Virus record (IMG/VR): IMGVR_UViG_2529292882_000022
Coordinates: 1-36,346 of that record
Strand: one strand, 5' to 3'
Source of the DNA: a virus
Taxonomy: Duplodnaviria > Heunggongvirae > Uroviricota > Caudoviricetes
DNA length: 36,346 nucleotides
Each line of letters starts with the position of its first letter. The first letter of the stretch is position 1. Positions 7,283-9,892 of this stretch are shown here, one piece after another. The position numbers and the translations under genes were made by a program. The notes beneath the pieces were generated by a model, which ran no database searches, was not told where the DNA came from, and worked only from the letters and a program-made list of their open reading frames with translations.

Positions 7283-8492
7283 ACTTGTTGACCTGAACCT
7301 GTGATGCCACCGTCGAAAAATAAGAATAGGTATCGCCATAAACCAGACTCGTATCTTTCGCAGGCGAGACAATATGGCCGTTAATACCAATGCTCACACT
7401 AATTGTTGAGATCAACGTCGCATCAACCAGCAGCCTGACAGAACTGGTAAAAATATCCTGGATACGCAGAAGATTTATCGGGTGTCCGACTTCAATTGAA
7501 TTGATGTAATCAGCAACGTTTTGCTGCACAGCCATAGCAATACCCGCCGGGTCAACATAATCATCAGACACCGTGTTCCAGGTGATTAGCACCATGACGT
7601 TTTGTGATGACGGGATAACGAACGGCACCTGATAAACGTCCGGCGAAACGGTTATTGAAACCGTGCGTTTTTCCACTGCCGCACCGGATGGATTGCTTAC
7701 ATCGTTGGTCAGTTTCGAAATATCCGGTACAGATTTGTAAATCGCATAAGCCACGTCATACGGATCACCGCCACCAACAACCGCAACCCATTTCCCCAGC
7801 GACGACTGCCGGAAAGAAATCAGGTTTTCGCGCACACCGCTTACTGATTTGAGCATCGCTTTAAAGCAATCCGGTGTTCCCTGCACACCAAACATGCCGG
7901 ACTCCATGACTTCGGCGCGGTAAGATGCCCACGTTTGCGCCTCCTGACCTGGCATTCCTGCGGTAAGGTTCGTGCATTTTACAGGCTGATCTTTGGGTAC
8001 CGATGTAATGACCTGAGTTACGGTTCCTTCCGGTACAGCCCATGAGCCTGACGTTATGGCCACACAGTAGACTGGCTCAGTCTGCCCGCTTTCCGGCACC
8101 ACCGTATCGCGGGAAACTGCATACTGGTAGTTGCCGTCACCGACAACAAATCCTTTAGGGATACCAAACCCCGGCAACGCCTCAAACACCACGTATACCG
8201 CCGTATTTGTACTTAATCCCTTCTGTGCTCCATAAATGTTTCCGAGTTGCATCAGTAACGGAATATTCGCGCCGTATGGGCTTACGGAGTTAATAAGATC
8301 CACCCGCGCCTGGTCTATTAATGCCAGCGCCCCGACAGCCGTGCTGGCAAGGTCTGTAATAAGTCCCGCCGGAAGGTTGGCTGTATATCCAGGTACTTTT
8401 TCAGCAACTCTGGTGATAAGATTCGCGAGTAAGTCATTGGGTGGCGTAGGCTGCGCACCCGCACTGGTCATAGTAATTGGTATTTCTGACAT
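7266..8492 (-). CDS. baseplate protein (J-like position), putative
   Basis: ~408-aa ORF upstream of the I-like and fibre genes; track start at 8504 is a TTG, first ATG is at 8492 (MSEIPITM...). Call by synteny and size. Confidence 0.5.
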   Translation of the reverse strand: MSEIPITMTSAGAQPTPPNDLLANLITRVAEKVPGYTANLPAGLITDLASTAVGALALIDQARVDLINSVSPYGANIPLLMQLGNIYGAQKGLSTNTAVYVVFEALPGFGIPKGFVVGDGNYQYAVSRDTVVPESGQTEPVYCVAITSGSWAVPEGTVTQVITSVPKDQPVKCTNLTAGMPGQEAQTWASYRAEVMESGMFGVQGTPDCFKAMLKSVSGVRENLISFRQSSLGKWVAVVGGGDPYDVAYAIYKSVPDISKLTNDVSNPSGAAVEKRTVSITVSPDVYQVPFVIPSSQNVMVLITWNTVSDDYVDPAGIAMAVQQNVADYINSIEVGHPINLLRIQDIFTSSVRLLVDATLISTISVSIGINGHIVSPAKDTSLVYGDTYSYFSTVASQVQVNKYAISD

Positions 8493-8513
8493 AATTAATC
8501 TCAAGAGGATTTT

Positions 8514-9062
8514 ATGAAATTTAACTCATTAGGGATTTTGATTAGCTCACTGCTATTTTCTGGTGTTTCTCATGCAATTGATGCCACAGAGAGAATGAAT
8601 GACATTCAACAATTTGGTAAATGGTATTATGCTGAGTTTACCATGCCTACCACTATGGCTTATCGTATTGGTGTTGAATCCAAATTGCCGCAGGATAAAT
8701 CAACTTTATTTATTGATATATCACCGTTAACTCAATGTGAGCCCGGTGATGTAACTGTCAATCATTTTATTGGATATAAACAAATGGATTTACCACCGTT
8801 CCTTCCTGTAAGCTATAAAATCAGTGGACAACAAAAGCAGGACTCTATAACAACCCCATCTATCAATGAAGGTTACTTGTTCAGTCCTATTAGCTCATTA
8901 AAGATTAGTGATTTGTTAAAATCTAAAGGGAAAGGTAGTTTTTCTTTTTGGTACACTCCGCCAACTGAAAGTAAAGAAAAACCACAAAAAATATTCTTCC
9001 CATTAGATGGCCTTCCGGAAGCATATAAGGCTGCAATCAATTCCTGTAAAGAAAACATGTAA
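8514..9062 (+). CDS. secreted/periplasmic protein of unknown function (moron)
   Basis: 182 aa with a typical N-terminal signal peptide (MKFNSLGILISSLLFSGVSHA then IDA); strongly AT-rich; on the opposite strand to the surrounding tail operon. Confidence 0.5.
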   Translation: MKFNSLGILISSLLFSGVSHAIDATERMNDIQQFGKWYYAEFTMPTTMAYRIGVESKLPQDKSTLFIDISPLTQCEPGDVTVNHFIGYKQMDLPPFLPVSYKISGQQKQDSITTPSINEGYLFSPISSLKISDLLKSKGKGSFSFWYTPPTESKEKPQKIFFPLDGLPEAYKAAINSCKENM

Positions 9063-9071
9063 AATCAGGCA

Positions 9072-9569
9072 GTGATATTTATGATGCACGCCTTTCTCGA
9101 AGTAGGTAAACGCTTTGCTACTTGGATCACCGAGCGAATCAGCGAGTATGAATTCGTAGAAAATCAGGACTTTTTGATTATTTCCCAAAATCGGGAAATA
9201 ATCGATAGAGGCATACCAGCTAAAGACTACCACCTCATCCTGGACCCCGCCAAAGAACTGGCAATGGTCGAGCGCAACGAAAAAGGCTGCCAGATCCGCC
9301 GATACTTCATCGAGTGCGAGAAGAAGCTGCGCGAAGAAACCACCAGCACACAATCCCCTCTGAATGTTGACATCATCATGCGCGTCAGAAACGGCTCCGT
9401 TACCCACATTGAGCACCACAAATCAGGCTCAGTTATAACCACAGAATGGGCAATTCACTTACTACGCAAAAGTGGATGGATTGTCATGCCTCGCGATGAA
9501 CTTCTTAACACGCCACTGGCCCAACTGATGCCCGAAAGCTTGCCTCAAACCGGAACCTGCGTCCGGTAA
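9072..9569 (+). CDS. AntA-like (phage antirepressor N-terminal domain) protein, putative
   Basis: Motif ...AKDYHLILDPAKELAMVERNEKGCQIRRYFIECEKKLRE... resembles the AntA/AntB antirepressor domain as remembered; start may be GTG 9072 or ATG 9081/9084. Confidence 0.45.
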   Translation: MIFMMHAFLEVGKRFATWITERISEYEFVENQDFLIISQNREIIDRGIPAKDYHLILDPAKELAMVERNEKGCQIRRYFIECEKKLREETTSTQSPLNVDIIMRVRNGSVTHIEHHKSGSVITTEWAIHLLRKSGWIVMPRDELLNTPLAQLMPESLPQTGTCVR

Positions 9570-9892
9570 CTGGTTCCGTTAAAAAACACAACATCGATGT
9601 TATAGGTGGGGTTCTCTGCCCCATCTACCTTTGAAATGGCCAATGATGCAAAATACCCGGCAAACTGTTGCTGAACCATGTTCACATAGTAGTCCGGGTA
9701 AATCTGCTGCACGATGCACTGCTGCGCAGGAATACCGTAATTCGCGTAAAATGGCGACTCCCCCAATCCCAGCTTTAACGTCTGAATGAGCGTCGTCAGC
9801 CAGCCGTAGGAGAAATCACCGTTGGCGTCAGATTCTACTGCAACCCATTTTTTGTTGCCGTTCGCGTCGGTGACGCGGCCCCATGTTCTCAT
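9545..9892 (-). CDS. small tail/baseplate-associated protein (115 aa), function unknown
   Basis: ATG at 9892 with AAAGG upstream; lies in the tail operon between the terminator-like hairpin and the opposite-strand island. Confidence 0.35.
   Translation of the reverse strand: MRTWGRVTDANGNKKWVAVESDANGDFSYGWLTTLIQTLKLGLGESPFYANYGIPAQQCIVQQIYPDYYVNMVQQQFAGYFASLAISKVDGAENPTYNIDVVFFNGTSYRTQVPV

Follow-up and report, generated by a model that had tools for sequence, protein, structure and literature searches.

Gene organization of the locus

The 36,346-nucleotide (nt) stretch analyzed here (the window; IMG/VR record IMGVR_UViG_2529292882_000022, positions 1 to 36,346, from a virus of the Caudoviricetes) contains a tail operon whose long gene run, in the list of open reading frames (ORFs), lies wholly on the minus strand except for two plus-strand ORFs, ORF1 and ORF2. 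ORF1 (also 'sec182') encodes a predicted exported protein of 182 amino acids (aa), and ORF2 encodes an AntA-like protein. They are located between the gene of a J-like baseplate protein (J) and the gene of a conserved 115-aa protein, an interval referred to below as the slot. The region is a moron or accessory cargo slot with swappable content, and not a set of conserved structural genes. The interpretation that we favor, with rather better than even confidence, is that ORF1 is an envelope-acting protector of the lysogen and ORF2 probably a dead remnant, both residing in a long-lived cargo slot.

An earlier note on this DNA had described two plus-strand genes within a minus-strand tail operon, the first about 21 bp from the divergent start of a J-like baseplate gene and the second converging on the 115-aa gene with an overlap of about 25 nt. 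This layout is present as described (positions, here and below, are window coordinates; Table 1): the J flank matches Pfam Baseplate_J and has its annotated ATG at 8492, the spacer measures 21 nt, and the 3′ end of ORF2 overlaps the last 25 nt of the 115-aa gene (9545–9569). J is also annotated as baseplate J in PP818812 and in RefSeq, with a coding sequence of 1227 nt. The second gene, given as 165 aa (9072–9569), is indeed an open frame, but its start is likelier ATG 9081 (162 aa) than GTG 9072, because GenBank PP818812 and RefSeq (strain TUM1881) use ATG 9081 for identical layouts and GTG 9072 falls within the putative ribosome-binding site. Minus-strand ORFs inside the slot (9003–9419 and 8873–9058) were disregarded as unsupported. 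The AT-richness attributed to the insertion holds for ORF1, with a GC content of 0.355 versus 0.499 in J, but not for ORF2, whose GC content of ∼0.48 is close to that of its surroundings; the compositional mark of a moron is thus found in the first gene and not in the second. In a sliding window, GC is 0.34–0.39 across 8400–9150, versus ∼0.5 on either side.

Table 1. Features of the J/115-aa slot and its flanks (window coordinates, except for the last row).
Feature	Position	Strand	Remarks
Baseplate J-like gene, 408 aa	7266–8492	−	Left flank of the slot; Pfam Baseplate_J, E = 1.5e-7
Candidate extended −10 promoter for ORF1, TGaCATAAT	8487–8495	+	Putative, from the looser scan; overlaps the J start codon
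J/ORF1 linker, 21 nt	8493–8513		Separates the divergent J and ORF1 starts; ORF1 Shine-Dalgarno AAGAGGA at 8503–8509
ORF1 ('sec182'), 182 aa, ATG start	8514–9062	+	Predicted exported; IalB-like β-sandwich plus C-terminal helix (modeled); predicted signal peptide, residues 1–21, at 8514–8576
ORF2, 5′-truncated AntA/AntB-family antirepressor gene	9081–9569	+	162 aa from ATG 9081; 165 aa from GTG 9072
AntA domain of ORF2	∼9084–9278	+	Pfam AntA match
Deletion junction of ORF2	9084/9085		blastn segments versus L002, L015 and L021
Conserved tail/baseplate gene, 115 aa	9545–9892	−	PHROG 7986; right flank of the slot
'Slot B', second, smaller variable spacer	9893–10202		From the 115-aa gene to a 237-aa spike/baseplate gene; 310 bp
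sRNA-Xcc1 (outside the window)	L002 7409–7492; L003 2697–2782		Also in L004, L007, L011, L015, L024, L058, L059 and L063

A variable cargo slot in related prophages

About 70 related loci were compared, and the length of the slot was measured in them; they include 58 IMG/VR loci and one Kluyvera locus fetched with the J protein (the single locus returned by a scan of genome contigs with J). In four distant relatives (L067–L070), with a J identity of 34–46%, there is no slot: J and the 115-aa gene abut or overlap (−4, −1, +10 nt). Every relative with a J identity of at least 82% (the E. coli group) has a slot of 587–3135 bp, and at least 10 configurations occur. The window type combines ORF1 with a truncated antirepressor gene (ant). 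In others, ORF1 is accompanied by 'rac61' (an exported protein of 154 aa) and the complete, 185-aa ant. Others still consist of an unrelated exported protein of 179 aa, whose ant neighbor is full, truncated or missing; ant plus a gene named lysozyme inhibitor LprI family protein by RefSeq, to which a YafO toxin-antitoxin pair may be added; a nuclease of 386 aa with an HsdR_N domain, encoded on the tail strand, which is the commonest configuration; or a membrane protein, a small exported protein and ant. Further configurations also occur. The 185-aa ant is the usual occupant of the slot. That ORF1 and the 179-aa occupant are diverged alleles can be ruled out, as they show no similarity (E = 0.12).

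Of the phage records, 'Actinobacillus phage vB_Apl-pPE4' (same layout, 97.6% identity) and Escherichia phage Rac-SA53 (three plus-strand genes in the slot) are the nearest. Slot contents are very different in E. coli chromosomes that share the flanking genes. Among complete E. coli genomes, J is present in 89 and ORF1 in 19; about 80% of the E. coli prophages with J are without ORF1, and unrelated genes take its place. The cargo status of the region follows from this variability and from the restriction of ORF1 to 19 of 89 genomes. The comparison with related prophages that the earlier note had proposed, to see whether the slot is empty or differently filled, thus gives both outcomes: at least 10 gene sets in relatives, and no slot at all in the distant ones. 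Relatives do not uniformly carry these genes as structural components.

The J-side border of the slot is sharp, with the 21-nt linker common to unrelated plus-strand cargo genes. Where cargo lies on the tail strand in relatives, it ends in a hairpin and T-run just ahead of the J ribosome-binding site. The alternative occupants proximal to J are nearly all exported or membrane proteins, having a signal peptide, a lipobox or a transmembrane segment. PADLOC found no defence-protein match for ORF1, ORF2 or eight alternative cargo proteins. A literature search found no account of this J/115-aa slot of Rac-SA53-type myoviruses, or of Rac-SA53 biology.

Three side observations concern the slot and its neighborhood. 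The 386-aa occupant (L008 2191–3351, and ∼24 IMG/VR loci) is a stand-alone protein on the tail strand that, of the type I restriction protein HsdR, has the N-terminal nuclease domain alone (Pfam HSDR_N); it has no accompanying ant gene and no PADLOC match, and is possibly an uncharacterised defence nuclease. On the J strand, no Shine-Dalgarno sequence for J is recognisable within 8493–8513 of the window, where J would have to be translated after a 1-kb antisense stretch; the equivalent J/ORF1 spacer of Salmonella and Buttiauxella relatives has a strong AAGAGGT for J. Finally, slot B measures 244–1528 bp in relatives, several of which have a gene for a Rha-family regulator there.

ORF1 belongs to a family of predicted exported proteins carried by mobile elements

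The signal peptide that the earlier note had assigned to the first gene is borne out by a manual reading of the sequence: the N-terminus of ORF1 (MKFNSLGILISSLLFSGVSHA, followed by ID) has the n-, h- and c-regions predicted for a type I signal peptide, with small residues at −3 and −1. In homologues, the cleavage motif is ANA, AHA or AFA followed by VD, and a signal peptide ending in A-x-A is found in essentially all members of a 45-sequence alignment.

Close homologues of ORF1, obtained by word-indexed search, form 13 clusters with 49–97% identity, all of ∼182 aa. A profile search of 1.84 billion representatives extended the family to 51 cluster representatives (clustered at 50% identity), mostly of 175–190 aa. 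Residues W37, C75 and C178 are invariant in the 45-sequence alignment. The only match of ORF1 among Pfam, PHROGs, NCBIfam and PADLOC is PHROG 31333, of unknown function: Pfam gives no family at E≤0.1 for ORF1 and none for the 45 family members, and NCBIfam and PADLOC give no match for ORF1. Pairwise ratios of nonsynonymous to synonymous substitution rates (dN/dS) are 0.08–0.20, from which it follows that ORF1 is a real, functional gene under selection.

Homologues about 50% identical to ORF1 are found in Salmonella and Buttiauxella phages, in the same slot, divergent from J and with a GC content of 0.35; the J proteins of these phages are 57–58% identical to that of the window. The sequence comparison indicates that ORF1 is an old resident that has diverged together with the phage, its AT-richness being a maintained property, since homologues that are 50% diverged in the same slot also have a GC content of 0.35. 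The proposal of acquired cargo is therefore correct as to accessory status, but the AT-richness is no sign of recent arrival.

Mobile elements likewise carry more distant members (22–32% identity) as cargo. One is in a siphovirus, in an opposite-strand island between the tail chaperone and tape-measure genes, beside two toxin-antitoxin pairs (YafO and HigB-like). Two are located at the cargo end of integrase-plus-primase/helicase elements, another is beside a Schlafen/AlbA_2 gene, and one member is chromosomal, adjoining lpxB/rnhB.

ORF1 has kept its place beside J even in phages whose J proteins are only 57% identical, which would suit a component of the phage life cycle, such as a periplasmic accessory of lysis, release or adsorption. 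We consider such a role very improbable: the gene is missing from most E. coli prophages with J and replaced by unrelated genes, its orientation opposes the late operon, and the phages L067–L070 exist without any slot.

Predicted structure of ORF1

An AlphaFold run with the 13 close homologues gave a predicted local distance difference test (pLDDT) score of 54 and was not used; the model discussed here is from a run with 45 diverse sequences, and has low pLDDT at residues 1–30. This predicted structure has the three-dimensional fold of IalB, although the sequence identity to Bartonella IalB (PDB 3dtd) is only 13–14%. Membership in the IalB family (Pfam IalB/COG5342) is not detectable by sequence, with no Pfam match for ORF1 or the 45 family members. 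A sequence-profile search of the PDB with the family alignment returned nothing at E≤10, and a fold search of BFVD with ORF1 gave only weak matches to hypothetical phage proteins. Compared with Bartonella IalB, the two invariant cysteines and the C-terminal helix belong to the ORF1 family. IalB proteins are described as invasion-associated; they are exported and envelope-associated, and their molecular function is unknown. Because of this common localization, the modeled fold supports an envelope location for ORF1.

ORF2 is a truncated antirepressor gene

The description of the second gene as AntA-like is well founded. ORF2 matches Pfam AntA (PF08346) with E = 2.9e-21 and 76.3 bits (cutoff 27), over profile positions 6–68 of 68. 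It had, however, been regarded as a second cargo gene with possible cross-regulation of a co-resident prophage, and here the alignments point elsewhere: they indicate that ORF2 is a truncated remnant of the 185-aa ant and not independent cargo, and that it is probably inactive. ORF2 is 80–93% identical to 185-aa orthologues over the common part and does not have their first ∼26 residues, so the full-length architecture (185 aa, N-terminus MTxQLIPVF...LLCNARDLH) is not present. Positions 1–25/31 of the PHROG profiles are likewise unmatched (the AntA/AntB family includes PHROGs 377, 5817 and 14211). A PDB sequence search with full-length Ant gave nothing meaningful.

Relative to the three-gene arrangement, 816 bp are missing in the window, comprising the neighboring exported-protein gene, the entire ant leader and ant codons 1–26. 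At the junction, the ATGA that opens a rac61-like gene (its start codon plus one base) runs in frame into ant at codon ∼27 (TGCACGCC); the motif ATGATGCAC is found also at the rac61 3′ end. The junction may be explained by two microhomology-mediated deletions (TATGA, TGCAC). ORF2 arose by this 816-bp deletion, which also removed the ant promoter and the leader with its sRNA-Xcc1 element (see below), and its product could be made only by read-through from ORF1.

Eight copies have the same ant junction, and the frame is open in five of them (the window, L001, L013, L014 and L071). The decayed sister alleles have a nonsense codon (L012), a frameshift (L022) or an extra 21-bp deletion (L010). In the sub-lineage of the window, three substitutions (HLTLD to HLILD, DTAKE to DPAKE and KGRQI to KGCQI) affect residues that are invariant in intact alleles, and dN/dS for the truncated gene of the window against that of L013 is 0.86, a value from very few changes. 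A different, independent truncation of ant beside the 179-aa gene is a pseudogene in RefSeq.

The truncated Ant could still be active, as a constitutively co-expressed, leaderless variant modulating the repressor of its own or a co-resident prophage. An open ORF and an in-frame fusion lend some weight to such residual activity: the deletion recruits both a start codon and a ribosome-binding site, the ORF is intact in the five copies named above, RefSeq annotates it as a normal coding sequence in TUM1881, the AntA domain is nearly complete, and repressors of the DicA/Gifsy type are known to be antirepressor-controlled (bioRxiv 10.1101/2023.04.14.536235). Nevertheless, activity seems unlikely to us, as the 26 lost N-terminal residues are conserved in all intact orthologues and in the PHROG profiles, the gene has lost its own leader and promoter, two of the eight junction copies are broken and one more is further deleted, the window allele bears the three substitutions in its invariant core, and independent truncations are called pseudogenes by RefSeq.

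The leader of the intact ant

In every intact ant tested (10 loci), the leader contains a full-length match to Rfam sRNA-Xcc1 (RF02221) of 70–78 bits (gathering score 53), ending ∼25–35 nt before the ant ATG. There is no sRNA-Xcc1 match in the window or in loci with a truncated or absent ant. In a Salmonella relative (L073 3612–3715), a borderline match precedes a gene with a Bro-N domain, and a paper on APSE phages places sRNA-Xcc1 upstream of an ORF6N-domain gene. This RNA may be a cis-acting leader of antirepressor-type genes. Upstream of it in Rac-SA53 (L002 ∼7370–7392) is a near-perfect palindrome, GTGGTTGCA-TCATG-TGCAACCAC, with a variant elsewhere (L003 ∼2660–2685), which resembles an operator or an RNA hairpin.

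In this phage family the early region is of the Rac/DicA type, as seen in pPE4. By analogy, control of the repressor is a plausible role of the intact ant, one that would be lost in the window copy, because the DicA/Gifsy-type repressor class is controlled by antirepressors (bioRxiv 10.1101/2023.04.14.536235). A Gifsy-style SOS-controlled model is unsupported, with no LexA box ahead of the intact ant genes; none was found in the ant leaders or in the window slot.

Proposed role of ORF1

We propose that, in a single lineage of Rac-like myovirus prophages found in enterobacteria, a long-lived cargo slot opened at the boundary of J and the 115-aa gene. ORF1 would be transcribed against the late operon and, because of this opposite direction, would most likely be expressed from the repressed prophage. 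Its product would be exported by the Sec pathway, with probable cleavage after Ala21, and would reside in the periplasm as an IalB-like β-sandwich with a probable C75–C178 disulfide. There it may protect the lysogen at the envelope, either by excluding superinfecting phages or by neutralising proteins that come in to degrade the wall or act in the periplasm. This protective role is suggested because the J-proximal occupants are nearly all exported or membrane proteins, one of them annotated as an LprI-family lysozyme inhibitor, and because other cargo is of the conflict type (toxin-antitoxin pairs, nuclease) and the ORF1 family recurs as cargo of mobile elements. Superinfection exclusion in particular, which the earlier note had raised, is what we infer from this context.

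Several observations weigh against this interpretation. A scan of 8000–10300 with consensus promoter and terminator models found nothing relevant for ORF1, and just 21 nt separate it from J; in a looser scan, the candidate extended −10 element listed in Table 1 would give a ∼12-nt leader holding the Shine-Dalgarno sequence AAGAGGA. ORF1 has no match to a known superinfection-exclusion or defence family in PADLOC, Pfam or NCBIfam. The biochemistry of IalB is unknown, so that the modeled fold supports an envelope location but no mechanism. The chromosomal family members by lpxB/rnhB possibly indicate a housekeeping envelope role. As for ORF2, the truncated ant is open in five of eight copies, keeps 63 of the 68 positions of the Pfam AntA model, and its pairwise dN/dS versus intact alleles is mostly low (0.03–0.22).

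Lysogenic conversion provides another reading, in which ORF1 is a fitness factor not aimed at phages, either an orphan immunity-like inhibitor (of type VI secretion system (T6SS) effectors, bacteriocins or host lysozyme) or a host-interaction factor, in parallel with bor and lom of lambda and with the 'invasion-associated' label of IalB. This would agree with the fold match to IalB, with the gene named as an LprI family lysozyme inhibitor by RefSeq in the same slot of relatives, with the Hcp and Tlde1 T6SS genes near the end of a Buttiauxella prophage that has an ORF1 homologue, and with the chromosomal members of the family. However, the family recurs in phage and satellite cargo with toxin-antitoxin and defence-like neighbors, which inter-phage conflict fits at least equally, and Pfam and NCBIfam provide no sequence link from ORF1 to any immunity family. 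We consider a conversion factor rather unlikely.

A broader form of the envelope-protector interpretation can be put forward only tentatively: ORF1 may represent an unrecognised family of IalB-fold, disulfide-bonded periplasmic proteins that serve diverse mobile elements (tail-operon morons of myoviruses and siphoviruses, and integrase-primase satellites) as an envelope-level device against phages or lytic enzymes. If true, this would be the first mechanistic handle on the IalB fold.

Relation to known systems

In its architecture the slot is a classical moron or accessory hotspot, with nothing categorically new about it. As in lambda (bor/lom), the HK97 morons and P2 (old/tin/fun(Z)), a fixed site between conserved late genes holds differing genes in near-identical phages, often on the opposite strand and compositionally distinct. 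The cargo includes toxin-antitoxin pairs and a nuclease, as in phage hotspots; such 'diversity hotspots' have been described (bioRxiv 10.1101/2024.10.15.618418). Unlike a classic moron, ORF1 does not have the promoter-gene-terminator anatomy, its upstream spacer being only 21 nt, with no detectable terminator.

The closest analogue is the immI/sieA region of P22, in which mnt-arc-ant is next to sieA, between late genes 16 and 9. In both cases, an antirepressor gene and an envelope-acting gene of the exclusion type are together inside the late/tail cluster. There is no sequence relationship, however: the Ant of P22 falls into other Pfam families, and SieA is a protein of the inner membrane. The slot is also without arc- or mnt-like regulators, and the ant leader of relatives has an sRNA-Xcc1-type RNA instead.

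ORF1 further resembles periplasmic exclusion proteins such as T4 Spackle, which inhibits the incoming tail lysozyme, and the lipoproteins Cor and Llp, in being small, phage-encoded, predicted to bear a signal peptide and proposed to act in the envelope; an LprI-family gene is found in the slot of relatives. ORF1 has no sequence or fold match to these proteins. ORF2 has the strong domain match expected of AntA/AntB antirepressors (PF08346), but not their first ∼26 residues or leader, and shows signs of decay.

The surrounding prophage

At its right end, the window runs into a Mu-like transposable prophage, whose left end (TGTATTGATTCACTTGAAGTACG... and then the genes for the c repressor, A and B) takes up 30223–36346 and shows 97.4% identity to phage Mu. 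The Mu-like element sits at about codon 137 of the GH108 endolysin gene of the Rac-like prophage (29998–30222); strain SC418 has an uninterrupted copy of this gene. Since the Mu-like element interrupts the endolysin gene, the Rac-like prophage carrying ORF1 and ORF2 is split and probably lysis-defective. The nearest record, PP818812.1 (L001, 'Actinobacillus phage vB_Apl-pPE4'), has an early region with recT, recE, kil, dicA and ydaT. As its 97.6% identity is to this E. coli prophage region, Actinobacillus looks doubtful as the host of pPE4.

Implications

What is new here is this slot, the occurrence of an uncharacterised IalB-fold family as recurrent cargo of mobile elements, and the link, outside the window, between sRNA-Xcc1 and the antirepressor gene. 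For annotation, the lesson is that the 'AntA antirepressor' of the window is, on the alignments, a truncated remnant and not a working regulator. Accessory hotspots of prophages are productive sources of new exclusion and defence functions, and this slot, with its fixed borders and many cargos, could be mined systematically. For the ORF1 family, with its 51 unannotated representatives, there is now a confident model of the structure, a predicted compartment and a recurring link to mobile elements, and ORF1 is a cheap, well-defined candidate for screening by plaque assay.

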